From positions 2,700,001 through 2,732,000 of the forward strand of contig OY759724.1 of the NCBI GenBank assembly GCA_963662715.1: a stretch of 32,000 nt of DNA, read 5' to 3'. Position 1 is the first letter of the stretch. Each line of letters opens with the position of its first letter. Of this stretch, positions 11,301 to 32,000 are shown one piece after another. The stretch comes from Candidatus Omnitrophota bacterium. Lineage in GTDB: Bacteria > Omnitrophota > Gorgyraeia > Zapsychrales > JANLHA01. The notes under the pieces were generated by a model. That model worked only from the letters and a program-made list of their open reading frames with translations. It searched no databases and was not told the DNA's origin. The translations under genes were made by a program, and so were the position numbers.

Positions 11301-12497
11301 ATGCAGATAAACCCCGGAATGAAAAGAAAATTATCCGTTCTGGTCGTTGAAAACAATCAGGTCGACAGCAGGATGCTGAGAGGGATGCTGGAGAAGACGA
11401 CGTACGGATCCTTTTCCCTCGAATGCTGTGAATGTCTGGCCAAGGCCTGTGAGGCTTTGGCGCAGCATGATTATGACGTGATCCTCCTGGACCTGAACCT
11501 GGCGGACAGCCGCGGGCTGGACACTTTAGACAAAATCCACAGCAAATTCCCCCACTTACCCATTGTTATCAACACCGGAGCCTACCAGGATAATCTGGGA
11601 TTAAAAGCCATCACAAGCGGGGCTCAGGATTATCTGATCAAAGGAAAATATCTGCCGTACGGGTTAAGTAAGTCGCTTTATTATGCCGTAGAAAGAAAAA
11701 AGGCCGAGCAGGAATTAAAGGCGGCCTATAATTATTTGAGAGAAACACAGGCTCAGCTCATACAGGCAGAAAAGATTAATGTGATCGGCGGATTAGCCAG
11801 CGGAGTGGCCCATGAAGTCAAGAATCCGTTAGCCACGATCATTTACGGGATCGAGTTCTTGTATACCAAATTCGAAGATGTTGAAGATGATCAGATTCAG
11901 GTAACGTTAAAAGCGATTCACGAGGCGGCCACCAAGGCCAACCGGATCATCAAAGACCTTTTAGACTTTGCGAGTCTCTCAGCCCTGCAGAGAAAGAGCG
12001 AAGACATCAATCAGGTGATAGACCACGCTTTAACGCTTATTCACCACCAGTGCGACAAGCTATCCATTGCTATTCAGAAACGTTATGATGAAACTCTGCC
12101 CCTGATACATATCGACAGAAACCGGATTGAACAGGTCATACTTGATTTGACTCTGAACGCCATTCAGTCGATGAAAAAAGGCGGGCAGCTGGAGATCGCG
12201 ACTTACCAGAAGGAATATGAGAAGGAGGACGACGGATGGCCCGGCCCTCCGTCAAACGATTTTAGGCCCGGCGACCCGGTCGTCATCGTTGATATTGCCG
12301 ACAGCGGTTCCGGTATCGGCGAGAAATTATTAACAAAAATATTTGATCCGTTTTTCACGACAAAGCGGGCTGAGGGAGGCGTGGGGCTCGGGTTGTCGAT
12401 TGCCCGGACGATCATGCACAACCATAAAGGCTTGATCAGCATAAAAAACAGGGAAAACGGAGCCGGGGCGCAGGCCCGGCTCATTTTTAAAGTGTGA
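11301..12497 (+). CDS. Hybrid receiver-histidine kinase (REC-HisKA-HATPase)
   Basis: N-terminal receiver (VILLDLNLAD), H-box SGVAHEVKNPL, N-box LTLNAIQSM, G1 DSGSGI and G2 GGVGLGLS. There is no TM segment or other sensor domain. Confidence 0.9.
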   Translation: MQINPGMKRKLSVLVVENNQVDSRMLRGMLEKTTYGSFSLECCECLAKACEALAQHDYDVILLDLNLADSRGLDTLDKIHSKFPHLPIVINTGAYQDNLGLKAITSGAQDYLIKGKYLPYGLSKSLYYAVERKKAEQELKAAYNYLRETQAQLIQAEKINVIGGLASGVAHEVKNPLATIIYGIEFLYTKFEDVEDDQIQVTLKAIHEAATKANRIIKDLLDFASLSALQRKSEDINQVIDHALTLIHHQCDKLSIAIQKRYDETLPLIHIDRNRIEQVILDLTLNAIQSMKKGGQLEIATYQKEYEKEDDGWPGPPSNDFRPGDPVVIVDIADSGSGIGEKLLTKIFDPFFTTKRAEGGVGLGLSIARTIMHNHKGLISIKNRENGAGAQARLIFKV

Positions 12498-12507
12498 GCG
12501 GGACAGG

Positions 12508-12885
12508 ATGCGAAAGGCAAAGATCCTTATTATAGATGATGAACGCGGTTTTACTGAAATGGTGAAGCTTAACCTTGAGTCGACGAACCGCTACCGGGTT
12601 ATTGTTGAGAATGATTCGCAAATCGCCCTGGAGACCATCATCCGGACGCAGCCGGATATTATTCTGCTGGATGTCATCATGCCGTATAAAGAAGGGCCGG
12701 ACATCGTTTATCAGGTCAGAAATCACCCGCTTGTCCAGGATATCCCCATCATTTTTTTTACCGCCACCATTACAAAAAATGAAGCGTCATCGGATTGCGG
12801 TATCGTCGGAGGACACTATTTTCTTGCCAAACCATCCTCGGTCGAAGAACTGATCGCCTGTATTGAGAGCCATTTGGATGATTGA
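12508..12885 (+). CDS. Stand-alone response regulator receiver protein
   Basis: LIIDDERG, ILLDVIMP, FFTAT and LAKPS motifs. It starts 10 nt after the kinase gene. Confidence 0.85.
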   Translation: MRKAKILIIDDERGFTEMVKLNLESTNRYRVIVENDSQIALETIIRTQPDIILLDVIMPYKEGPDIVYQVRNHPLVQDIPIIFFTATITKNEASSDCGIVGGHYFLAKPSSVEELIACIESHLDD

Positions 12886-12961
12886 AGACATCCCCCGGCT
12901 CTTCCAATCTCGCGGGACTCCTAAAATAAAAGACATTATATGTTTTCCATTTTAGAATTTT

Positions 12962-12970
12962 TGCTATAAT
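12962..12970 (+). promoter_or_regulatory. Extended -10 promoter element (TGcTATAAT)
   Basis: An exact TGnTATAAT overlaps the first ATG of the track ORF 12969..13901. Confidence 0.4.
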
Positions 12971-13901
12971 GCAGCCGATGAACCGTAAAGGCGCTTTTAT
13001 TTCCAGAATTTACGTATTTATCCTCAGCAGCTTTTTAGGCATGGCGAGTATGCCTTCATCGGGGGCGGCGTCCCTGTTTGATAAGCATACGGAAGGGGAT
13101 TGGACATTTTTTATCCGGAGTGCAAAGCTTGTCCCTCTGCCGATCCAAGCCGAACTTGTCCAGGCCCCGTTTTCTTCGCCGCATCTTGTTTGGTCAGAGG
13201 ACGAATCCCTGCAAATCCTGTCCATTGAACTGGCCATCCTGTATAAGGGGCAACCGTATGCTGTGAAGGATCCGAGTCAAATCCATTTTGACCTGAAAGA
13301 CCGCAAAGGAACGCCCATGCACCTTTTAAGTGCTGAGCAGGGAGCAGGGGCTTTTGAGCTTCCTGCCGTAAAGGAGTCGTCTGACGCACCTCCTGACCTG
13401 CTGTCCAATAACGTTTATTTTCAGCTGTCTCATCAGGCCCTGGATGATTTTTCTCTGCAGGTAGATATCGCAGAGCCCGGCATTCATTCGGCATTTGAAC
13501 TTCCCGTCCCCAAGGACATGATTCAGGTTGTTTCACGCGCCGCCCAAGAACGCACACCGGTTGAGGAGGATATCATCATCCTTTCTCCCGCCCCCGGAAT
13601 GCCTGTTTGCCCGGGGGACGAGGTCTCTTTGAATATTGAGTTTTCCGATCATGTCGCGAGGCCGGATAAGATATTGATCCTCTCACCTTTTTATTCTTTC
13701 GAAGATGCGTATGCCAACGGTCATTATGCCCTGCGTATTGAAAAGCACGCCCCGCTCGGCGCCTATGACGTTCTTATTATTGCCGTCTGGGACAGCCGTC
13801 ATCTGCAGACTACAGCATCTAAGTTATTGCCGTTAAAAGTGATAAATAACAGGAAGAAGAATCCTGCCCCGCGCATGTGCCCTTTGCTTCGGGAAATCTG
13901 A
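12969..13901 (+). CDS. Secreted protein, unknown function
   Basis: 310-aa ORF with a signal peptide (ISRIYVFILSSFLGMASMPSSGAAS). No recognisable catalytic motif. The start may be the ATG at 12978. Confidence 0.6.
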   Translation: MQPMNRKGAFISRIYVFILSSFLGMASMPSSGAASLFDKHTEGDWTFFIRSAKLVPLPIQAELVQAPFSSPHLVWSEDESLQILSIELAILYKGQPYAVKDPSQIHFDLKDRKGTPMHLLSAEQGAGAFELPAVKESSDAPPDLLSNNVYFQLSHQALDDFSLQVDIAEPGIHSAFELPVPKDMIQVVSRAAQERTPVEEDIIILSPAPGMPVCPGDEVSLNIEFSDHVARPDKILILSPFYSFEDAYANGHYALRIEKHAPLGAYDVLIIAVWDSRHLQTTASKLLPLKVINNRKKNPAPRMCPLLREI

Positions 13902-13933
13902 GGTGTTTTTCTCGGGCGATGATGATCTAGTCC

Positions 13934-13962
13934 TTGAATCTGAATATTTTTAGTGATATAAT
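13934..13962 (+). promoter_or_regulatory. Near-consensus sigma-70 promoter (TTGAAT-17 nt-TATAAT)
   Basis: TTGAAT at 13934-13939, a 17-nt spacer, and TATAAT at 13957-13962. It lies inside the TTG-initiated 5-prime extension of the track ORF, which argues for the ATG at 14009. Confidence 0.6.
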
Positions 13963-14008
13963 TCTCCGATTATTCATTTCATTTATTAATCCCGGAAACA
14001 AAACTATT

Positions 14009-15643
14009 ATGCGCAGAGCGTTAACAATTATTCTTTGCTTATGTTTACTGTCGTCCTTTTGGGCCTGTCCCTGTCCGGTTCATGCGGAGGATGATTATTC
14101 CCTGGTCTCTTATTATTTGTCCCGGGGCGAGAAGAAACTTGAGAAAGAGGACTTTCTTGCGGCGATGAATCAGTTCCTGATTGTCATGCTGCTGGAACCC
14201 TCCCAGAAAGCCGCCCGGGAATATCTCCAGCGTTCGGAAATCAGTGCCGTATTGCCCGCACAGTTTGATCAATATAAGCTGAAGAAATTCCTTGATCTTG
14301 CGGACCAGACCGATTTCCTGAACTCCCGTATTGCCTATGTCGATGAGTCTAACGAAAGACTGTTTGATTTTATTCACAAGAATAACCTTGTGACAGCGGA
14401 GAACCGGGATAATATCAACGCTTTAATGGCTCTTGTCAAACCCAAGAGAGATATTTCTTCGCTGACGGCTAAATTAGAACAGTTGCGGGATGCCGAAGAC
14501 GTCGAAACTCTGGGCCTGGCCATTAAACTGATGCTTGAACAGAAAGAACGGTCGATCCAAGTGTTGCAGGCAAGACAAAAAATCAATAAACAGCTGCGGA
14601 CATTGAAACAGGCGTTGCTGGAAAAGGAAATCTCCCGTCAGAAATCTGCTGAGGTTGAAACGGACGGTCAGCGCTTTAGCCGCATCCGGGAGCGTTTGGC
14701 GGAGAAGGAAATGCAGATAAAAACACAGGATGATCAGATGAAAGTTCTTCGGGAGGAGCTGACGGCTGTCCGTCTGCAATTTGCCGATATGCAGGCGAAA
14801 ATGAACACGACCGACCAGAAATTAGCCGTGTTAACGAAGGAACTTGCCGGGATGTCCCTGGATGTTTTGAGCAAAGAAAAACTCATTGAAAAAAGGAACG
14901 AGACGATAGAGGATCTGAACGCGCAATTAGAGGAAGCACAGGCACAAATGCAGCTTATTCAGGGCATTATTCAGGAGAAGGATGGCCAGATCACCGAATT
15001 TAAGAAACAATTGAATCAGATGAAAGAGCTCGTTGAGACCCGGGAGACATCCGTATTTAACCAGCCGGAAAGGATCCCGGAAGATATGTATCCTGAGGAC
15101 GACACGGTTGTTTTCACCGATGAAGCGCAGAATAAACTGGATAGCTTTGAACAGAAACTGGAAGCCCTGACTTTAAAATATCAGACATTAGAAGGCGTTG
15201 TCCAGGAAAAGGAGGCGCAGATCGATCAGCTGAACCAACTCGTGGGTGTTTTAGACGGGAAAATTATTTCCTACCGGCAGACAAACACAAAAAAGATCCG
15301 GGAACTGAACCAGGTCTACGGAATATTGGAAATTTATAAAGGCCGGTTGGAACAAACATGTGATCTTCTCAAGAAGAAAGAACAGTATATCATAGAAGTT
15401 GAACAGCAGCTGCGTGGCCTAGAAAGCCTTTTTGACAAACATTCATTCGATTTAACGGGTGAATCTCTCCCTGCCGAAGAAGAGACGGATGAAGAGGAAT
15501 ACGTTCCCCCCGCAGAGTCTCTGATTCAAGAACCTCCGGAGAAATCTCAAGAGTCTCCTGTCTTTGAAAGTACAAAGCAGCATATTCAGAGTTTGCTTAT
15601 GAATGCCAGGCCCCTGAATTACAGTATTATTCATTTTGAATAA
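14009..15643 (+). CDS. Secreted long coiled-coil protein with N-terminal TPR-like helix pair
   Basis: Signal peptide (MRRALTIILCLCLLSSFWACPCPVHA|EDD). About 400 aa follow of heptad-like, E/K/Q/L-rich sequence, then an acidic C-terminal tail. Confidence 0.7.
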   Translation: MRRALTIILCLCLLSSFWACPCPVHAEDDYSLVSYYLSRGEKKLEKEDFLAAMNQFLIVMLLEPSQKAAREYLQRSEISAVLPAQFDQYKLKKFLDLADQTDFLNSRIAYVDESNERLFDFIHKNNLVTAENRDNINALMALVKPKRDISSLTAKLEQLRDAEDVETLGLAIKLMLEQKERSIQVLQARQKINKQLRTLKQALLEKEISRQKSAEVETDGQRFSRIRERLAEKEMQIKTQDDQMKVLREELTAVRLQFADMQAKMNTTDQKLAVLTKELAGMSLDVLSKEKLIEKRNETIEDLNAQLEEAQAQMQLIQGIIQEKDGQITEFKKQLNQMKELVETRETSVFNQPERIPEDMYPEDDTVVFTDEAQNKLDSFEQKLEALTLKYQTLEGVVQEKEAQIDQLNQLVGVLDGKIISYRQTNTKKIRELNQVYGILEIYKGRLEQTCDLLKKKEQYIIEVEQQLRGLESLFDKHSFDLTGESLPAEEETDEEEYVPPAESLIQEPPEKSQESPVFESTKQHIQSLLMNARPLNYSIIHFE

Positions 15644-20479: not shown

Positions 20480-23215
20480 ATGACAAAACTTTCGTTGGGG
20501 ATTCTTATAGCCGCATTATTAGCTGTCTTTTTTTGCGGAACAAGCTATGCAGACTCGGAGACAGATTACCATTATTACATGGTCCTGGGGATCAGAGCTT
20601 TTGATAAAGGTTTCTATGATAAAGCGATTTGGTATTTTGAAGAAGCCCAGGCTGTAGACCCTACCAAAAGCACTCCTTTAAAATATATCAAGCTTATTAA
20701 ACGGTTCAAGGAAGGCCGTTTGTCTGTTGTTCAGCCGCCCGTTCGGCAGAAAAAAGGGGCGCCCACACCCGTTGCGCAGGAAAAGTCCGTCATTGAACAG
20801 CACCTTGCGACATCCCGAAAAATGATCGAAGCTAAAGACATGGTCCTGCAGCCTAAGGAGGCTGAAGTTCTTGTCCTGAATGATCAGTTCTGGTCTCTGC
20901 AGCCTAACCTGGAACTGGAAATTGAAACGAACAAGGTTTATGTTTTTCAGGGACAAAATGTCAAACGTTTTTTAAGTGTCAAAGAAGGCGTGCTGGATGT
21001 CGACCGTCTTGATAAGGACCGTATCAGCATATCAGCCAAGAACCGCGCATCGACATTTTTCCATGTCTGGGACGACCGCGGACGCTGGACTTTTCATGTC
21101 CAGGGGAAGCTCCCGGTTCTTTATCAGAATACCCGGGCTCAACAGTTTAAGGATACAGGGATGGAAGACAATCCTCCTTTAAAGATAGCTTATTCTAATA
21201 ACTGGGGGGCTATTTATCGGGGCAACAGTATTCCGGACATGGAACGTTCGAGTTTGACATTTACCCAGTGGGTCGGGACACACGGAAGAATCCCATACGG
21301 AAACTTTGATGCCTCCATGAATTTTTACAAATATGCAGAATCCACGGAAAGAATCGGTGAACGGATGGGCTTGGGGGACGGACGCATCGGCCCGTTTAAG
21401 GATTTTAATATACGCGGCTTTGATACCGAAGTCTATTTGTCGGATTTCTCCGTGCCGGGGCGAAGCTTCCGAGGGGTGCGGTTTGACAGTTACGCATTTA
21501 ACCGGAGATTGAATTATACATTATTTCAGGGGCAGGACAGGGCCCAGTTCCTTTTTATCAGCCCTTCCATTCTGGATGTCCGTAAGACCTATATTGAAGG
21601 CGCCAGTGCCACCTTGTTCCCGGACAGTGACCATAACTACACGATTAATTACGCCCGGGGCTACGGAGACTACCGGGATAACTTTTTGAAAAATAAAGCA
21701 TTTTCTGCTGAAACCGAACATAAGTTTTATAATTTAAAGGTCTCCGGGGAAGTGGGGTACGATGAAGACGTCTATAGCGAAGTTATACGGACAGAATTTA
21801 AAAGATATAATCACACTCTGAATGTGAATGTCCGCGATATTCATAAGGATTATGTTACCGTTGTCGGACGCCCTTCCGGCCGGGGGGAAGCCGGCGGGAA
21901 TATCCGTTATAATTTGAAACTGGAAAAGACGCGTTTTAATTCCAACCTCGACGTTTACCGGAACCGCTATCTGAACAACCCTGAACAGGACGGGGTGAAT
22001 TTTGACTGGAACGGCTCCATGAATCATACCTTGTCTTCCAGCTCTTCCTGGTCCGCGGCAGCATTTGTCTCCTATACGCCGCAGCTTGTTTCCCCGCATC
22101 AAAGCATGAGCCTGACAAACTATTATCATAAAAGGTTCCCTTTCCTCTACGGTCAGGCCATGTCGATGTCTTTGGGGCATTCTTTCCAGAGAAATCGTTA
22201 TGAAGAATCTCCCTTCGCGGAATTTGACCGCAACACGTTATCGGCGGGCTTTAGAATCCCGCTGTTCCCGGACGTGGGTTTTTTTGCCAATTATGATTAC
22301 TCTTTTGTCCATAATATCCAGGAAGACCTGCAGACTTATCCCCAGGTCTTCACAGCCGGCGTGGACTATAATAAAACCCTGTATAATCATGTCATCGGCC
22401 GGTGGAGCCTCCGTTATCGTAATGAGGAAAATGCCACCGGTCAGTTCAGTTTTTTATCGGGAGAAGATTCGATCCGGGGAACAGTGGGCCTCAGTTACCG
22501 CCCGAATCCCGGTTTTGAAATTTACCTGGACAGTAATGTCCGCAGTGTCTGGACAGAGGACCCGGATAACCCCGCTTTTAATGATGCCGATGTCCGAATC
22601 GGTTTTCGCTCCAGTTGGGACACGTTCTTCCATTGGAATCCCACCGGGATTTTCCAGGGACGGGTCTTTAATGATAGCAACGGCAATGCCCGGTACGACC
22701 CGGGGGAAGAGGGGCTGGCTGACATTGGGGTGAAAGTCGGAGATAAGACCGTTAGGACCAACAGCCGGGGAGAGTATTTTGCCACGGTCAGGGCGAAAAA
22801 AGTGCGTGTCGCTTTGGATCTGGGATCTTTACCCATGGGATACATCAATTCAGACGGTTTTATGCGGGATATTGTCGTGGAACATAGACAGGTTAATGCG
22901 GTTGACTTTGGCCTGACCAGCCAGGCCGGGATTTACGGTGTCGTTTATATCGACCGGAACCTGACCGGAACGCTGGATCAGGGAGATGAGTTTATCGCAA
23001 GGGCGAAGATTATCCTTGATGGACAGCATGTCGCGTACAGTGATTTTGAAGGGACATACAGCTTTGATAACATTAAACCCGGTCAACATGTCATCTCGAT
23101 CGATATCAATTCTCTTCCGCTCCAATATATCCCGCTTATCAAGCTCAACAATGAGATTGAAGTCGGGGAAGGGATCACGTATGTTTTTAATATCCCGTTA
23201 AAGGAAGGAAAATAA
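20480..23215 (+). CDS. Large outer-membrane protein: signal peptide, TPR-like helices, CpaC-type pilus N-domain, beta-barrel, two SdrD-B/carboxypeptidase-regulatory-like domains
   Basis: Signal peptide ending SYA|DSE. The segment VKRFLSVKEGVLDVDRLDKDRISISAKNRASTFFHVWDDRGRWTFHVQ matches the pilus-formation N-terminal domain pattern. About 480 aa follow of aromatic-rich alternating strands (GFFANYDYSF, GRWSLRYRNEE, ADVRIGFRSSWDTFF). The C-terminus has GRVFNDSNGNARYDPGEEGLADIGVKV and GVVYIDRNLTGTLDQGDEF...SDFEGTYSFDNIKPGQHVISI. Confidence 0.6.
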   Translation: MTKLSLGILIAALLAVFFCGTSYADSETDYHYYMVLGIRAFDKGFYDKAIWYFEEAQAVDPTKSTPLKYIKLIKRFKEGRLSVVQPPVRQKKGAPTPVAQEKSVIEQHLATSRKMIEAKDMVLQPKEAEVLVLNDQFWSLQPNLELEIETNKVYVFQGQNVKRFLSVKEGVLDVDRLDKDRISISAKNRASTFFHVWDDRGRWTFHVQGKLPVLYQNTRAQQFKDTGMEDNPPLKIAYSNNWGAIYRGNSIPDMERSSLTFTQWVGTHGRIPYGNFDASMNFYKYAESTERIGERMGLGDGRIGPFKDFNIRGFDTEVYLSDFSVPGRSFRGVRFDSYAFNRRLNYTLFQGQDRAQFLFISPSILDVRKTYIEGASATLFPDSDHNYTINYARGYGDYRDNFLKNKAFSAETEHKFYNLKVSGEVGYDEDVYSEVIRTEFKRYNHTLNVNVRDIHKDYVTVVGRPSGRGEAGGNIRYNLKLEKTRFNSNLDVYRNRYLNNPEQDGVNFDWNGSMNHTLSSSSSWSAAAFVSYTPQLVSPHQSMSLTNYYHKRFPFLYGQAMSMSLGHSFQRNRYEESPFAEFDRNTLSAGFRIPLFPDVGFFANYDYSFVHNIQEDLQTYPQVFTAGVDYNKTLYNHVIGRWSLRYRNEENATGQFSFLSGEDSIRGTVGLSYRPNPGFEIYLDSNVRSVWTEDPDNPAFNDADVRIGFRSSWDTFFHWNPTGIFQGRVFNDSNGNARYDPGEEGLADIGVKVGDKTVRTNSRGEYFATVRAKKVRVALDLGSLPMGYINSDGFMRDIVVEHRQVNAVDFGLTSQAGIYGVVYIDRNLTGTLDQGDEFIARAKIILDGQHVAYSDFEGTYSFDNIKPGQHVISIDINSLPLQYIPLIKLNNEIEVGEGITYVFNIPLKEGK

Positions 23216-23704: not shown

Positions 23705-23812
23705 GGACGGTTACGGTAGCCAGACAACCATGTCATGCTCCTTATATTTAAGGAAGAGTTAGGTTCACGGCTTTGCGCCCTATTCTTTCGAATAGTTTAC
23801 CTTTCTATTTGT
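23705..23812 (-). promoter_or_regulatory. c-di-GMP-I (GEMM-I) riboswitch aptamer
   Basis: The minus strand reads AAAUAGAAAGGUAAACUAUUCGAAAGAAUAGGGCGCAAAGCCGUGAACCUAACUCUUCCUUAAAUAUAAGGAGCAUGACAUGGUUGUCUGGCUACCG. My recollection of the Vibrio Vc2 aptamer is GGGCAAACCAUUCGAAAGAGUGGGACGCAAAGCCUCCGGCCUAAACC...GCGGGGUUACC. Shared features are a GCAAAC-like 5-prime strand, a 6-bp hairpin capped by a GAAA tetraloop, CGCAAAGCC, a second hairpin (CCGUG...CAUGG) carrying a CCUAA tetraloop-receptor motif, and a 3-prime GGCUACC. An extended -10 (TGtTATACT, 23820-23828 on the minus strand) sits just upstream. Confidence 0.8.
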
Positions 23813-26875: not shown

Positions 26876-28233
26876 GTGTGAATATCCGACAAGTGGAGGT
26901 TTTTGCTGAACAAACCTTTCCTGATTTCGGAGTTAATAAGAGACGGGAGATTATAAGGCTTTTATATGAGATTGCCAAAAGGGAAGGATGTGCCGTGGAG
27001 ACGATCCTACACGAGGACCTCCGGAGGACAAGGTCTTTCCGTGCGGTAAAGTCCTATCTTCTGAAACGCCGCTACCCCGGAACCACGCCGGGTGAGAGGG
27101 GGGGGCATCATCGCTTTTTAAAGGTCACGGCGCCTTGTGCCGCAGCTCTCCCGGAGAGTGACGTCAGGGATTTGTCTCCCGAAATAATATCTGTTGAGGA
27201 AGAGTTGCTTGATCATCCGTTTGTCATGCGGATGCGGCAGACTTTTCGGGATGCTGAATTCCGGGGCATGGCTTCATACAGGGATGAGATAAGGAGGCGT
27301 GCTGTTTTCGGGGAACAGGATTACAATGAGCGGAACAGCCATTTTTTTATTGTAAAAGAACGATTTCAATTCTGGCTCGATTGCCCTTGTTCCGCAAAAT
27401 CCGTTCCTTGCGGATACACGATCCTCAACCTCGGACAGGGCTGTCCCTTTAACTGTTCCTACTGTTTTCTGCAGGGCTATGTGAATTCTCCGGGACTGGT
27501 TTTCCCCGTCAATACGGATGATTTCTTTAAGGCCTTGGAAGAGCACGGGGGGCCCTGGCGTATCGGGACAGGACAGTTTACGGACTCACTGGCGCTGGAT
27601 CATCTGACGCGGTATTCGTTGGGCATCATAGATTTTATGCGTAAGCGCCCGGATTGGGTCTTTGAATTTAAAACGAAAAGTGATAATATAGATCGGCTGT
27701 TGACTGTCGAAGCCCCGGCCAATGTGTTTGTCGGCTGGTCGTTAAATCCGGAAGAGTTTGTCCGGGAAAATGAAAAGGGGACGGTGTCCCTGGCCAGGAG
27801 GATAAAAGCCGCGCGTGCCTGCGCCCGGCAGGGATATAAGCTGACCTTTCATTTTGATCCCATTGTTTTTTTTCGGGGATGGGAGGAGGAGTATAAGAGG
27901 GTGATCGATTTGCTTTTTGACAAGATTGCTCCTGACCGGATAGCCTGGATCAGTTTGGGGTGTCTGCGTATGACCCCGAGGTTAAAACAGGCTGTCGAGA
28001 CCCGTTTCCCTGATTCTTCGATATTGGACGGTATTCTTGTCCCGGGCTTTGACGGGAAATTAAGGTATCCCCGTTCCCGGAGGATGGAGATTTATAGGTT
28101 GATGTTGCATTGGATTCGCGAAAAGGCGGAAAGGGTCCCGGTTTATTTATGTATGGAAGAGCCGGATTTGTGGATGATCCCCGGCCTGGAGAAGAATTTA
28201 AACAAATATATTTTGAGTCAGGATTATGAATAA
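26872..28233 (+). CDS. Spore-photoproduct-lyase-like radical SAM protein
   Basis: CX3CX2C cluster motif CPFNCSYC within LNLGQGCPFNCSYCFLQGY. The overall length and the N-terminal extension are as in SplB-family proteins of non-sporeformers. Its ATG overlaps the AKR stop codon (ATGA). Confidence 0.7.
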   Translation: MSVNIRQVEVFAEQTFPDFGVNKRREIIRLLYEIAKREGCAVETILHEDLRRTRSFRAVKSYLLKRRYPGTTPGERGGHHRFLKVTAPCAAALPESDVRDLSPEIISVEEELLDHPFVMRMRQTFRDAEFRGMASYRDEIRRRAVFGEQDYNERNSHFFIVKERFQFWLDCPCSAKSVPCGYTILNLGQGCPFNCSYCFLQGYVNSPGLVFPVNTDDFFKALEEHGGPWRIGTGQFTDSLALDHLTRYSLGIIDFMRKRPDWVFEFKTKSDNIDRLLTVEAPANVFVGWSLNPEEFVRENEKGTVSLARRIKAARACARQGYKLTFHFDPIVFFRGWEEEYKRVIDLLFDKIAPDRIAWISLGCLRMTPRLKQAVETRFPDSSILDGILVPGFDGKLRYPRSRRMEIYRLMLHWIREKAERVPVYLCMEEPDLWMIPGLEKNLNKYILSQDYE

Positions 28234-29116
28234 TAAGCCGAAAATGTGTGTTGAATGTCTTGAATTGGTTGAAGTCGGGCGGGCTGTTGGTGATCTTGCC
28301 AGGGCGCTTCTGCAGGAAATTAATAATAAAAATATCAAGTTATTTGATCTCCCGGCGCATAAGAGAATTTTTTTGTTTATTTTGACCCGGGCTATTAAGA
28401 CTTTTACTGCCATTGAAGTTTTATGTCTTCAGGGATTCGGGCAGGATGTCGCCGCCCTTATCCGGAGTCTGCTGGAAAATTTGATCACGGCCCAGTATAT
28501 TATTTTTGACGAAAAGACAGCGGATCATATGGCGAAGCGATTTGTCGAATATAAATGGGTGATATTCAAGCGTTCCCTGGCGGAGGAGGAACGGGGGTTG
28601 CGTCGTTCTGCTGACGAGGAGAAGGTAGAGTTTAACGAGAAGAAGGAATTGATTCTTAAGCATGTGGAAGAGTTTAAAAAGAGATATGACATCAAATCCG
28701 ACCGGGCTTTGATAACTTGGTCAGGTAAAACCGTCAAGGACATGGCTCGGCAGGTCAGTAAAGAATTGTACGACGAGTATGAGTCAACCTTCAGGAGATG
28801 CTCTAGATTTTCTCACCCCACAATATTAGGCGATAAAGAATACATCGTGCAGGATCAAAGATCCTTGACGTTTTCTCCCAGGCCGTCTGCTGTCGGCGTG
28901 GACATGAACTATCAGGCAGGCATCCGTTATTTTATGGCTTATCTTGATTTGGTGAATAATTTATTTAAATTGCAGTTCGCTGAAGACCTCAGCGCCCTCC
29001 GGAAGAAATTCCAGGATGTTCAGGATCTGCTGAACAAAAAAAACTCCGCGGTATCTCCCCGAGAAGAATCCCGCGCGACGAATATTCGAGAAGTAAATAT
29101 ATATTTTGATTATTAA
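28226..29116 (+). CDS. Helical protein of unknown function (possibly DUF5677-like)
   Basis: 296-aa ORF that overlaps the radical SAM gene by 8 nt. It is predicted to be all-helical. An N-terminal CVEC is present and no catalytic motif was recognised. Confidence 0.5.
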   Translation: MNNKPKMCVECLELVEVGRAVGDLARALLQEINNKNIKLFDLPAHKRIFLFILTRAIKTFTAIEVLCLQGFGQDVAALIRSLLENLITAQYIIFDEKTADHMAKRFVEYKWVIFKRSLAEEERGLRRSADEEKVEFNEKKELILKHVEEFKKRYDIKSDRALITWSGKTVKDMARQVSKELYDEYESTFRRCSRFSHPTILGDKEYIVQDQRSLTFSPRPSAVGVDMNYQAGIRYFMAYLDLVNNLFKLQFAEDLSALRKKFQDVQDLLNKKNSAVSPREESRATNIREVNIYFDY

Positions 29117-29263
29117 AGATGACTCTTTAATGATTGTCATAGTGTTTCCGGGTTTGTCCTTGTCCAAGGTTGTCCGGCTCTGTCATGTTGACAATTTTAT
29201 CAAAATGCATTAAAAAGTGTGAGGCTAAAACTTCAAAACCGTAACAATGCAGAAGGGATAAGC

Positions 29264-30118
29264 ATGAATTTCAATACGTTACTGGGGTACTTTGAAGAAG
29301 CGCAAGGATTCAAACATATTCAAGAGGTTATTTGTATCCTGTGCGGAGCCTCTTTGGAAATCCGATCTTTGGACGGCCGGATTTTTAAATGCAACTTTTC
29401 CCCCTCTCTGAGTAAAAAATCCTATGAAAGCAAAGCAGATTTTCATGTCGATTGCCAGCACCGCTCGGAAGCGTGCAAGTGTCTTGTTTCAAATATAATA
29501 GAGAAGGCAACGATTTCCGGCCAGACCCAGATCAATAAATGTCAGGCCGGCCTCACGCAGATATTATTGCCCATTCATATCAGAAAGGAAATCGTCGGTT
29601 ATCTCATCGTCCTTGAAAATCAGTTCTTCCGACTCAGCTATGTGCAGATCAAAGCGATTATTAATCTGCTGGAGAATTTTATCAAGGATATTCAGGCTGA
29701 GCTCGACCTGTTCCCGAATTTAAAGAAAGACAACCTGAGTTATCAGCAAATGATCGTTCACAAGGTTGTGCAGTATATTAGCGAACATTATCATCAGCCG
29801 GAACTTACTCTTAAACAGGTTTCGGAGGCCAACGGCATCAGTTATCATTATTTAAGCCGTTTAATCAAAAAGGTCCTGAAAACGACCTTTTCTCAGTATT
29901 TGAATCAAACGAGGCTGGAAGTCGCTTCGCGTCTTCTGCAGAACCGCAGTTTGTCGGTCAGTGAGATCGCCTATACCTGCGGTTACGAAGATCCGGGATA
30001 TTTTTGCAAGCTATTCAAAAGAATGTACGGGAAATCCCCCGGGATATTCCGGCTGAATCCTCCCAATAGAATCTCTTCTCCCAAGGTAAAACAGAGACTG
30101 TTTCCGGCCAGATCCTGA
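29264..30118 (+). CDS. AraC-family transcriptional regulator with Cys-rich PocR-like sensor domain
   Basis: C-terminal double HTH (LTLKQVSEANGISYHYLSRLIKK...SVSEIAYTCGYEDPGYFCKLFKRMYGKSPGIFR). The N-terminal segment KCQAGLTQILLPIHIRKEIVGYLIV resembles PocR. The track start is GTG 29219; the ATG is at 29264. Confidence 0.8.
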   Translation: MNFNTLLGYFEEAQGFKHIQEVICILCGASLEIRSLDGRIFKCNFSPSLSKKSYESKADFHVDCQHRSEACKCLVSNIIEKATISGQTQINKCQAGLTQILLPIHIRKEIVGYLIVLENQFFRLSYVQIKAIINLLENFIKDIQAELDLFPNLKKDNLSYQQMIVHKVVQYISEHYHQPELTLKQVSEANGISYHYLSRLIKKVLKTTFSQYLNQTRLEVASRLLQNRSLSVSEIAYTCGYEDPGYFCKLFKRMYGKSPGIFRLNPPNRISSPKVKQRLFPARS

Positions 30119-30349
30119 TCAATTGCTTTTCCTGCAGGGTTTTTTCCTTACTTTAGACCTGTTTTCCTTCACTAAGATTATGAATAATGGCGTTTATTCG
30201 AGAGAAATGAGTCAATAGCAAATATTTCCCATAAATGAGCAAATGCGTCCATTGAATAAATTTTAAAAGATGATATCCTTTTTTGGGTTATTAAATAGGA
30301 CTTCAGACAATATGAAAAATTCCAAAAGCACATATAAACCAAACGCTGG

Positions 30350-30398
30350 CCCGGACGTCACATGCTCCGTCGTGATGCCGGGTTTTTATTTTGTTTTT
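30350..30398 (+). terminator. Intrinsic terminator-like hairpin in the AraC / acidic-protein intergenic region
   Basis: 11-bp stem (cccgg[a]cgtcac / gtgatgccggg, with one bulge and one G-U pair) and a 10-nt loop, followed by tttttattttgttttt. Confidence 0.6.
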
Positions 30399-30542
30399 AA
30401 AGCTGAAAGGAGGTGAGTTAAAACCGCTGTATTTTTTTAGGAGAAATTTTTAACGATTAATTAAGAAGTAAATTGAAGGAAAAAGGGTTAATGAAGGACA
30501 GCATCGAGTTCTTCGCCCTCTATTGTCAAAGTGAGGAATGAA

Positions 30543-32000
30543 ATGAAAAAATTATTAATTTGGATTTTAGCAATAGCTTTTGCAGCATATCCGGTGGCCG
30601 GTTATGCCGAAAGCATCGCTCTTTCTGATTCAGAAATGGATGAGATTGCAGCGGGTGAATGGGTGGTTCTTGCTGAAGGCGAAACTGTTGAAGATGTTTT
30701 TTTCAGCCAGAACGAACTCCAGTCCACTGACGGTTCCCTGAATGAAGTGTCAGGTTTGAGCGTTGTAAACAGTGTTGACAGTGCGGTTGCCGTGCAGGCT
30801 AACGTCGGCAATTCCGAAGATTTGGCGGAAGTTGAAGCCAATCAGGCCAACGAAGCCAACGTGCTCAACATGAATCCTTCGGTTGACAACTCAACTTCGA
30901 ACACGGTCACCAACATCACTGAGCAGGATCAAGTGAATGCCTGGTCCAAAGAGACATCGACAACGGTCACTTTCTCTCATGAAGATGAAAACAATACCCA
31001 GATTTACGACAATGAGCAGTCATCTTCAGCCAACAGCTCTTCCGAATCCACATCAGCGACTTTAGATGCATCCGCTTCCGGATCTGCCTCATCTCAGGAA
31101 GAGCAGTCTGGTTCAACAACAGACTCAACTCTAAACGAAAATCATACAGCCAACACAGATAACACGGCTTTCCAGTATGACTATTCGGATGACACAACTT
31201 TTGATCTGGATGCTCAAGAGCAAGATTCATCTGCTTCTACGGCTGACACTCAAGAAGAAGAGTCCACATCGGCCAGTTTAGATGTGCAGGCCGATTATTC
31301 TGACAGTGCTGCTGAACAGTCAGAAGAGTCCACATCAGCGAGTTTAGATACACAAGCTGATTATGCTAACAGTTCTGCTGAACAATCAGAAGAGTCCACA
31401 TCAGCCGGTTTAGACGTGCAGGCCGATTATTCTGACAGTGCTGCTGAACAATCAGAAGAATCCACATCAGCTAGCTTGGATACTCAATCCGAATATTCTG
31501 ACAGTTCTGCTTTTGACGCCAACGCCAGTCAATCAGCGCAGGCTGAAAGCAGCTCCCAATCAGAAGACAGCACATCAGCAACTTTGGATGCCAACCTGTC
31601 CGCTTCCGAAAGTGCATCAGAGCAGGCTGCAGCCGAAGACGCGACATCAGCTTCCTTGAACGCTGATGCGCAGTATTCTGACAGCGCAACAACGGATTCC
31701 ACAACTGATTTTTCAGCGACTGAAGGAGAAACAACAGCAAGTTCACAAAGTGTTGACGGAACTTATAATCAGACCACAGACACTTGCGCAGATTGTGACA
31801 CCTCCACAACGACTTTTGAGGGAACAGCTGCCACAAGTGACTATTCTGACAGCAAAGATTACACCGCGGGCACAACAGCCGGTACAACGGAAAACACAGA
31901 TGCTTCTGGTTCGCTTGCCGGGACATATGATGCTTCTTCGGCAGAGTCCAGTTCAGCAGAGTCCAGCAGTGAAGCCTCAGGTGGGTTAAATGCCACTTAT
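30543..32000 (+). CDS. Secreted, hyper-acidic Ser/Thr/Asp/Glu-rich tandem-repeat protein (5-prime partial; runs off the window)
   Basis: It is not in the supplied track because no stop codon falls inside the window. By hand translation, ATG at 30543 (GAGGA 5 nt upstream) opens a frame with no stop for 486 codons, ending exactly at base 32000. The signal peptide is MKKLLIWILAIAFAAYPVAGYA|ES. The motif E-x-[SA]-T-S-A-x-L-[DN] recurs seven times. Confidence 0.8.
   Translation, partial: MKKLLIWILAIAFAAYPVAGYAESIALSDSEMDEIAAGEWVVLAEGETVEDVFFSQNELQSTDGSLNEVSGLSVVNSVDSAVAVQANVGNSEDLAEVEANQANEANVLNMNPSVDNSTSNTVTNITEQDQVNAWSKETSTTVTFSHEDENNTQIYDNEQSSSANSSSESTSATLDASASGSASSQEEQSGSTTDSTLNENHTANTDNTAFQYDYSDDTTFDLDAQEQDSSASTADTQEEESTSASLDVQADYSDSAAEQSEESTSASLDTQADYANSSAEQSEESTSAGLDVQADYSDSAAEQSEESTSASLDTQSEYSDSSAFDANASQSAQAESSSQSEDSTSATLDANLSASESASEQAAAEDATSASLNADAQYSDSATTDSTTDFSATEGETTASSQSVDGTYNQTTDTCADCDTSTTTFEGTAATSDYSDSKDYTAGTTAGTTENTDASGSLAGTYDASSAESSSAESSSEASGGLNATY
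31257..31520 (+). repeat. Four tandem 66-nt (22-codon) coding repeats with A-B-A-B higher-order structure
   Basis: Units lie at 31257, 31323, 31389 and 31455. Units 1 and 3 differ at 4 of 66 nt. Units 2 and 4 share the LDTQ variant. Degenerate copies extend on both sides (about 31040-31700). Confidence 0.9.

Follow-up and report, generated by a model that had tools for sequence, protein, structure and literature searches.

In the Fap system of Pseudomonas, secretion of the subunit FapC needs the catalytic cysteine of FapD, a periplasmic peptidase whose substrate is unknown; FapE and the linker of FapF have been proposed as FapD targets from indirect mass spectrometry (PMC5557850, PMC6173800). 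The Pseudomonas Fap proteins are reported to carry no canonical C39 sequences (PMC5557850), and the co-localised fapD-fapF homologues found in five phyla outside the Proteobacteria have been reported with their cargo undescribed (Rouse, Matthews and Dueholm 2018). Our own search of the literature, which did not take in all journals, returned no identification of a FapD substrate since 2019, no paper on the function of DUF6160 (the N-terminal domain of the Fil protein FilA) and no paper on Fap-like systems in Omnitrophota. Here we describe a gene from a Candidatus Omnitrophota bacterium (GenBank assembly GCA_963662715.1, contig OY759724.1), located at the end of a 32,000-nucleotide (nt) stretch of the forward strand (contig positions 2,700,001 to 2,732,000) that we call the window and whose own numbering is used throughout. 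The open reading frame (ORF) probably specifies, from its N-terminus, ~60% of the major subunit exported by a Fap-like fibre system, one served by a FapD-type peptidase and a FapF-type channel.

The frame opens with an ATG at position 30543 on the forward strand and runs off the window edge at 32000, an interval of 486 codons in which we count zero stops. The nearest in-frame stop 5′ of this ATG is at 30492, and a Shine-Dalgarno (SD) sequence, GAGGA, lies ahead of it at 30533-30537. From the local base composition, the probability of 486 open codons arising by chance is about 9e-12, and the remaining five frames of the interval hold 9 to 43 stops each. An initial annotation of this DNA had recognised that the frame is open to the edge and had explained its absence from the ORF track by the want of a stop codon; this is correct, as the ORF listing skips ORFs running off the source. 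Five ORFs in other frames overlap the interval. They had been called artefacts, and are indeed best read as by-products, most likely so because the main frame is conserved. The full-length orthologue is 822 amino acids (aa) long, ends in a second copy of the repeat described below, and is colinear through its residues 1-508 with the fragment, so that the interval represents the 5′ 60% of an acidic, two-repeat subunit gene. Codons of fragment and orthologue show 148 synonymous-type differences against 172 amino-acid replacements, a pattern that indicates protein-level selection and argues that the frame is a real gene under protein-level constraint.

The encoded fragment contains 97 Ser, 72 Ala, 57 Thr, 48 Glu and 47 Asp residues, with 0 Arg and 4 Lys. 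Two of the four Lys sit within the signal peptide, leaving a mature part with no Arg and two Lys, just as an earlier hand translation had it. Net charge at pH 7 is approximately -92, and the composition, dominated by S, A, T, E and D, goes with an isoelectric point of ~4.05. The description of the product as a Sec-exported, hyper-acidic repeat protein cut by the window edge thus stands, with orthologues of 822 aa to show what lies beyond.

The protein begins with a Sec-type signal peptide, MKKLLIWILAIAFAAYPVAGYA, recognised by eye (residues 1-22, 30609 being the first nucleotide after it; 30543..30608, +) and 95% identical to that of the orthologue. It is followed by a putative propeptide, ESIALSDSEMDEIAAG (residues 23-38; 30609..30656, +), with the register of a double-glycine-type leader, and by an N-terminal repeat module (residues 39-115; 30657..30887, +) with the core LSVVNSVDSAVAVQANVGN ... 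NMNPS, which is 69% identical to the orthologue and homologous to the C-terminal module of the family. The remainder (30888..32000, +) is a hyper-acidic middle rich in S, T, A, D, E, Q and N, positionally conserved with orthologues at 60% identity and continuing at the window edge. It includes a 66-bp (22-aa) tandem array of 3.9 copies (31256..31511, +) with the unit SEESTSASLDxQADYSDSAAEQ; beside this array, the orthologue in locus L003 carries an insertion of 22 extra residues compared with the window protein. Seven copies of E-x-[SA]-T-S-A-x-L-[DN] had been claimed for the protein. The number holds under the relaxed pattern [SA]TSAxL[DN], the seventh copy being STSATLD at residue 169, which the strict pattern does not match; the strict count is six. 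The pattern [DEQ]Y[SA][DN][SD] occurs seven times in the fragment.

The only two cysteines of the fragment form a CxxC motif, CADC (31785..31796, +), which appears as CADC or CEDC in orthologues, the comparison taking in L002, L003 and L009; several members of ~300 aa have CxxC or CxxxC (ETEC-K-x-C-E) at the matching place in the linker. FapC has likewise been reported with a conserved CxxC adjoining its linker (PMC6173800). The presence of CxxC in both families may reflect convergence or coincidence.

The fragment belongs to a wider family. Homologue searches used the N-terminal 165-170 aa as query. The first 170 residues retrieve three genome loci at ~72% identity, two of them labelled as metagenome-assembled genomes of Candidatus Omnitrophota and one as Planctomycetales; a metagenome scan with a six-sequence alignment adds an activated-sludge contig and more distant loci. 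Together, the three genome loci and the activated-sludge contig are 72-76% identical to the window in the N-terminal part. An exhaustive HMMER search, in which the N-terminal 165 aa were compared with 1.84 billion cluster representatives, found 49 proteins, each representing a cluster at 50% identity. Most of these are 300-340 aa long with two matched stretches, and share the order signal peptide, motif, ~60-aa module, acidic S/T-rich middle and C-terminal module. The motif LSDxEMDxIxAG, singled out in the initial annotation as a possible family signature, proves to be family-defining in the form L-[ST]-D-x-E-[ML]-D-x-[IV]-x-A-G-[DE]-W, in which A-G is invariant and the W (W40 in the window) nearly so.

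Both ends of the protein carry the same kind of module. The N-terminal one, ~60 aa and rich in N, Q, V and A, reads NNNDIxLxDESQxxIQAVSNANAVDSAVAVQTNIA ... NYNPS across the family, and the C-terminal one reads ENNHIxLEDxSQxNxxAVSNLNAVGSGAAVQTNIASNVG...NGL-COOH. The two are homologous (hhalign probability 99.2%, E 1e-19, 59 columns). Between them lies a middle that ranges from ~150 to ~1000 residues and varies in composition; in short members it spans ~150 aa in which ETLD and DYD motifs recur, and the TSASLD and DYSDS units of the window look like multiplied versions of these. Acidity runs through the whole family, members having -7 to -12 net charges for every 100 residues, and the window lineage is the most extreme, at -14 to -20. 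The hyper-acidity of the window protein exaggerates, within its own lineage, a middle that is acidic in general and variable in length: on the family alignment, the acidic stretch is the expanded middle of a normally ~300-aa two-repeat protein and not the family's defining feature. In a more distant, 1176-aa member from locus L010 (7298-10828), these terminal repeats flank an S/K/D/E/A-rich middle of ~1000 aa, with 114 Lys+Arg and 198 Asp+Glu. Expansion of the middle has therefore occurred more than once, with differing compositions that are not always polyanionic.

The neighbours of the subunit gene carry the comparison with Fap and Fil. Wherever the contig of a related locus extends far enough, we find a module with the order DUF5677, AraC/PocR regulator, subunit(s), small paralogue, C39 peptidase and FapF-like barrel. 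The module is seen in L002, L003, L007, L009 (with two tandem subunit genes), L010 (where the call covers the subunit and downstream genes) and L020/L021 (a 232-kb contig), and partially in L006/L018, where the contig ends within the peptidase. Across these loci, subunit identity to the window runs from 76% down to ~36%. Peptidase and barrel were tested in the orthologous loci, the window ending at 32000 inside the subunit gene.

In L003, the peptidase (13074-13757) is a 227-aa stand-alone C39 protein with a signal peptide. It matches Pfam Peptidase_C39 (3.6e-22), the double-Gly protease 6mpz in the PDB (3e-10) and, in NCBIfam, FilB (5e-41, the best match) and FapD (1.3e-33), and it keeps the catalytic Cys, His and Asp motifs as YSCGAA, HFVVV and ADPA. 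The next gene (13761-15188) encodes a 475-aa outer-membrane barrel protein, whose residues 199-475 (277 aa) match the PDB structures of FapF (5o65/5o67/5o68, 2e-32). In NCBIfam, the barrel matches FapF at 5e-44 (150.7 bits, under the 700-bit equivalog cut-off) and FilC at 1.6e-16. Its N-terminal part consists of a hydrophobic segment and a charged region, helical by eye, followed by a linker, and in this arrangement too it resembles the Fap channel. FapF-type barrels are likewise present in L002, L007, L009, L010 and L020. In the distant locus L020, a gene for a FeeM/autoinducer-synthase-like N-acyltransferase (12405-13079) lies directly 3′ of the barrel, a position that may point to some connection with lipids or signalling; the other loci are without it.

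Directly after the subunit gene, L003 encodes a secreted protein of 152 aa with LLSDEELDQIYAQG following its signal peptide and an N-rich end. The C-terminal part of this small protein shares homology with the subunit repeat (hhalign 92.6%, E 4.6e-7; also tblastn), which makes the protein, on sequence grounds, a one-repeat paralogue of the major subunit. Set against a FapE-like plan, in which a disordered linker joins a conserved N-terminal part bearing a GG/GA site to an N/Q-rich C-terminal part, such proteins correspond in layout: they have LSDEELDxIxAGG or AQG near one end, N-rich sequence at the other and 60-350 aa of variable linker between the two. The small protein has zero matches in NCBIfam and Pfam, and hhalign comparison with the small proteins of Croceicoccus and Cupriavidus linked it to nothing.

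The motif that opens the subunit provides a connection between cargo and peptidase. The published register of double-glycine leaders places Leu at -12, Glu at -8, Leu at -7 and a hydrophobic residue at -4 (PMC6363468). The window motif L27-S-D-S-E31-M32-D-E-I35-A-A37-G38 fits this register exactly given cleavage after G38, with L27 at -12, E31 at -8, M32 at -7, I35 at -4, A37 at -2 and G38 at -1. The motif-spanning stretch is ESIALSDSEMDEIAAGEWVVLAEG, and the predicted cut falls between ESIALSDSEMDEIAAG and EWVV, making E39 the first residue. The motif is found again in the small paralogue, as LSDEELDEIHAG before G in L006, LSDEELDGVSAG before G in L010 and LSDEELDQIYAQ before G in L003. The barrel protein has it too, within its periplasmic linker (stretch GLTDKELDRFIAGQGIE), as LTDKELDRFIAG before QG in L003, LKETELDAMIAS before GS in L009, LSDAVLGAIYAG before GP in L010 and DHELQTYIAS before GG in L020. 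A regular expression for the motif gave 23 matches in 578,924 six-frame residues from the window and 21 loci, and all 23 fall inside subunit, small paralogue or barrel proteins. We therefore predict that the opening motif is a double-glycine-type C39 protease site.

In several respects this site departs from the setting in which C39 leaders are usually placed. Leader peptides processed by the C39 domains of PCAT/AMS transporters (ComA, LahT, PCAT1) share the register, with Leu at -12, Glu at -8, Leu or Met at -7, Ile at -4 and a small residue at -1, and their peptidase is of the same family, with Cys and His conserved. In the present family, however, the leader stands behind a Sec signal peptide and has Ala at -2, the peptidase is stand-alone, secreted and free in the periplasm rather than a cytoplasmic domain of an ATP-binding cassette (ABC) transporter, and the cargo is a protein of 300-1200 aa instead of a small peptide. 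No ABC transporter gene occurs in the module. A bacteriocin precursor was also considered as an identity for the protein, and rejected.

The likeness to Fap, whose channel FapF is a trimer in the outer membrane, extends from the homologous peptidase and barrel to the cargo: Sec-dependent subunits, a small paralogous minor subunit, and a major subunit with imperfect N/Q-rich repeats split by a variable linker, next to which CxxC is found. There are also differences. This family has two repeats where FapC has three, no FapA-like gene is seen in these loci, gene order differs, and DUF5677 and AraC/PocR genes are attached to the Omnitrophota module. The subunits and channel linker here bear a canonical double-glycine-type motif; the peptidase and barrel score far under the NCBIfam equivalog cut-offs; and the phylum, Omnitrophota, is another one. 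The export machinery, judged by homology, is thus of the Fap/Fil kind, while the subunit falls outside the FapC/FapB family.

Acinetobacter Fil offers a second comparison, in which FilB and FilC are the counterparts of peptidase and barrel, and FilA has an analogous motif, MDDAALSAATGQDG, straight after its signal peptide. FilA is without the two-repeat architecture and without the acidic middle, and the extra FilD/E/F genes of the Fil locus are absent from the module. A profile of DUF6160 recognises A. baumannii FilA at 2.8e-8 and two of 27 members of the present family at E 0.03-0.05, below the cut-off, with zero match to the window protein; a DUF6160/FilA kinship on so few weak matches was set aside as too weak to use. 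Curli resemble the proposed system in having a Sec-exported repeat subunit and a paralogous minor subunit that pass unfolded through a dedicated outer-membrane channel, but the types of channel and protease are unlike, and Pfam detects neither Curlin repeats in the subunit nor homologues of CsgG/E/F among its neighbours.

Proteobacterial Fap-like systems show comparable traits. FapE-like proteins of Croceicoccus and Cupriavidus carry L-x-E-x-x-L-A-x-x-R-G-G, and the Cupriavidus FapF linker has SESLARKRGG. In Croceicoccus marinus, pCME4A9I encodes a Fap-like operon (L017, 3954-8218) whose cargo consists of tandem DNSIDVADSGNDNS units. This cargo is a 335-aa D/S/N-repeat protein with a net charge of -17 per 100 residues, and after it come a protein of 131 aa, then a C39 peptidase, then a FapE-like protein that carries LSEEVLARQRGG, and finally FapF. 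By its sequence, the Croceicoccus operon is an independent example of a hyper-acidic repeat cargo, and acidic low-complexity cargo and GG-type sites thus recur in Fap-like systems, not being peculiar to the window. An unrelated observation concerns Aeromonas caviae (L011, 2014-4110), where an insertion sequence-type transposase gene lies directly upstream of fapB and the fapB ORF is without a signal peptide; this canonical fap operon seems to be disrupted at its 5′ end.

From these comparisons we propose the following pathway. Sec would take the precursor to the periplasm, where removal of the signal peptide would leave a 16-residue N-terminus, ESIALSDSEMDEIAAG, acting as a minimal double-glycine-type leader. 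The periplasmic C39 peptidase would bind this leader and cut after A37-G38, and the FapF-like pore would let the unfolded subunit cross the outer membrane. Once outside, the two N/Q/V/A-rich repeats at its ends would stack into the cross-beta (amyloid-like) core of a fibre, which the one-repeat paralogue would nucleate (seed) or cap. The acidic middle, grown to several hundred residues by 22-aa units, would form a hydrated polyanionic brush that could bind cations. Expression is probably controlled by the adjacent AraC/PocR regulator. Cleavage at the motif by the C39 peptidase we infer from its register; fibre or amyloid formation, for which we lean on the composition of the repeats and on modelling, is the weakest step of the proposal.

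A number of observations weigh against this proposal. The module at the window locus is extrapolated from orthologues, with the C-terminal repeat and downstream genes lying past the window. Within the motif, the sole departure from the leader pattern is Ala instead of Gly at -2, a substitution invariant in the subunit family, and the -1 residue is Q, R or H in some minor proteins, while some others have AGG. Because of the Ala at -2 and the Q, R or H at -1, the exact cut site is uncertain. The subunit matched zero families in Pfam and NCBIfam, although the Pfam copy used misses genuine Aeromonas FapC, which makes its silence uninformative on FapC membership; the repeats found nothing in NCBIfam even at E <= 10. 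Compared with a profile of 265 repeat units from 120 FapC homologues, the subunit repeat shows no detectable relationship (hhalign 0.2%, E 0.38). An alignment by eye to repeat 1 of Aeromonas FapB, on the spacing N-x8-Q-x-N-[IL]-A, was rejected by profile-profile comparison.

Structural evidence is similarly reserved. An AlphaFold2 model of a 332-aa member is all-beta but of low confidence (mean predicted local distance difference test score 57, predicted template-modelling score 0.32). A profile search of PDB sequences with the subunit returned signal-peptide noise alone, and a Foldseek search of the PDB with the model gave nothing usable. Foldseek matches to MACPF and gasdermin pores were judged to be meaningless long-hairpin look-alikes (E > 0.09, TM < 0.2). 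The model runs long beta-hairpins through the supposed linker of this ~300-aa protein, and because of this the middle may be more than a passive spacer.

Several of these observations favour an alternative in which the export route is the same but no fibre is made, the product being a polyanionic coat or adhesin, either monomeric or tethered to the surface. Instead of building a cross-beta core, the terminal repeats would then act at the FapF-like channel as modules for targeting, plugging or anchoring or, in a variant, would pair head to tail, N-repeat with C-repeat, into a flexible chain. The missing homology to FapC or curli repeats fits such a product, as do the presence of just two repeats per subunit and a middle with conserved ETLD, DYD and CxxC that is modelled as long beta-strands; the related Fil system of Acinetobacter is, moreover, described as a pilus and not an amyloid. 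Nevertheless, the repeats are rich in N, Q, V, A, G and S and take a strand-turn-strand form in the low-confidence model, and a one-repeat paralogue beside the major subunit parallels the pairs CsgB/CsgA and FapB/FapC. The orthologue C-termini were also searched for anchor signals, and lipobox, sortase motif and transmembrane segment are all absent. We consider an exported coat or adhesin of this kind unlikely, though less so than the alternatives that follow.

A different reading takes the binding of cations or minerals as the protein's main role, or else sees in it a heavily glycosylated part of an S-layer or matrix; the acidic repeats would be what functions, and the neighbouring genes would be incidental. 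The charge of ~-20 per 100 residues, the 34% Ser+Thr and the lack of Arg all suit this idea, and so does the acidity of every family member and of the Croceicoccus protein with its D/S/N repeats. What the family conserves, however, is the termini and the motif rather than the acidic repeats, since the middle changes in length from ~150 to ~1000 residues and in composition, becoming Lys-rich as well in L010. In addition, a peptidase and barrel module kept across subunit identities of 36-76% implies that the neighbours are not incidental. As a statement of primary function this reading is improbable, yet as a secondary property binding is compatible with an exported fibre subunit, and among the functional suggestions of the initial annotation, which were generic, it is "matrix component" that comes closest to the mark.

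Two further explanations can be dealt with briefly. The first takes the opening motif as part of a LapA/LapG-type retention module, in which a periplasmic protease cuts at Ala-Ala-Gly and so frees a surface adhesin. The LapG substrate site is (T/A/P)AA(G/V), and IAAGEW does contain a similar AAG. Against this, the module is without genes for LapG (BTLCP/C93), LapD or type I secretion, the L-12/E-8/M-7/I-4 spacing is the C39 leader register, and the peptidase and channel are instead C39 and FapF-like, on which grounds the LapA/LapG module was rejected as very improbable. To the second, a chance open frame in low-complexity repeat DNA or a pseudogene, we give almost no credence: low complexity and five overlapping ORFs speak for it, but the minute chance of so long a frame, the conserved orthologues with their synonymous-biased codon pattern, and the joint presence of signal peptide, SD and family-wide motifs speak against it.

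Upstream of the subunit gene, the window retains the first part of the module. The DUF5677 protein is encoded at 28226..29116 (+), and is the product of the first module gene in loci both near and far; next, at 29219..30118 (+), comes a regulator of the AraC family that has a PocR sensory domain, directly upstream of the subunit gene, with its true start perhaps at ~29264. As seen with L008, L009 and L020, these two genes precede the subunit in close relatives and also at loci where subunit identity is just 36-48%. Both genes appear, by their conserved position, to belong to the module. Further upstream, the window order is a 911-aa protein, an aldo-keto reductase, an SPL-like radical SAM protein, DUF5677 and AraC/PocR, and the orthologue loci keep this order, with a 918-aa protein in place of the 911-aa one.

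A leader of 424 nt separates the AraC gene from the subunit gene and holds several conserved elements, all on the forward strand. A nearly invariant block of ~37 nt (30219..30255) is a candidate operator or promoter element. It is followed by a terminator- or attenuator-like hairpin with a T-run (30350..30398), of which the hairpin is kept in orthologues while the stem sequence differs. An invariant, SD-like element, GAAAGGAGGTGA (30400..30411), lies ~132 nt 5′ of the start codon, is perfectly complementary to the 16S 3′ end and is conserved in all five orthologous leaders, with no conserved ORF after it. We take it to resemble the STAB-SD mRNA-stabilising element of Bacillus thuringiensis cry3A. 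Just before the SD, a stem-loop (AGGG...CCCU, 30486..30520) is conserved, with an inner stem that has changed on both sides. The same region contains an upstream ORF of 15-16 codons (30491-30541), which was rejected; an RNA stem-loop fits better because the peptide is unconserved and the frame shifts between orthologues. An Rfam scan of the 5′ leader found zero known families, and a promoter scan of it did not rise above shuffled controls.

Two other features of the window deserve mention. The 911-aa protein (20480-23215, +) is secreted and has a weak C-terminal SdrD_B/CarboxypepD_reg-like domain with no other family match; it is syntenic with the 918-aa protein in L002 and L003. On the reverse strand, a riboswitch for cyclic di-GMP (c-di-GMP-I, Rfam RF01051, 63 bits, E 2.6e-10) at 23712-23811 lies directly upstream of an 86-aa ORF (23638-23378) with a signal-peptide-like N-terminus, MKHIYFLGMVTAIILASLCQDIYG. 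A small secreted protein ~7 kb from the fibre module may thus be under c-di-GMP control.

Taken more broadly, the locus invites a general rule for Fap/Fil systems, which we advance tentatively and would sooner expect to fail than to hold. Both the subunits and the channel linker would carry a "two-stage leader", made up of a Sec signal and a double-glycine-type propeptide, to be read in the periplasm by a FapD-type C39 peptidase, so that proteolysis would license substrates and also gate or dock the pore. The product in Omnitrophota would be a new extracellular fibre, with a two-repeat cross-beta core and a polyanionic brush, possibly able to bind cations or glycosylated, whose length would be set by expansion of tandem repeats.

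The finding adds an uncurated cargo family for a Fap/Fil-type export module, and does so in a poorly studied phylum. A candidate substrate family can now be assigned to fapD-fapF pairs outside the Proteobacteria, and a near-canonical C39 site occurs in the channel linker as well as in both subunits that are exported, which are the kinds of target put forward speculatively for Pseudomonas. The question of what FapD-type peptidases cleave thereby becomes testable with a peptide and purified enzyme. The family also illustrates how tandem-repeat expansion can turn a subunit of ~300 aa into one of 800-1200 aa. For the Omnitrophota themselves, a little-known phylum most of whose members are uncultured, the sequences suggest the production of a dedicated polyanionic fibre outside the cell.

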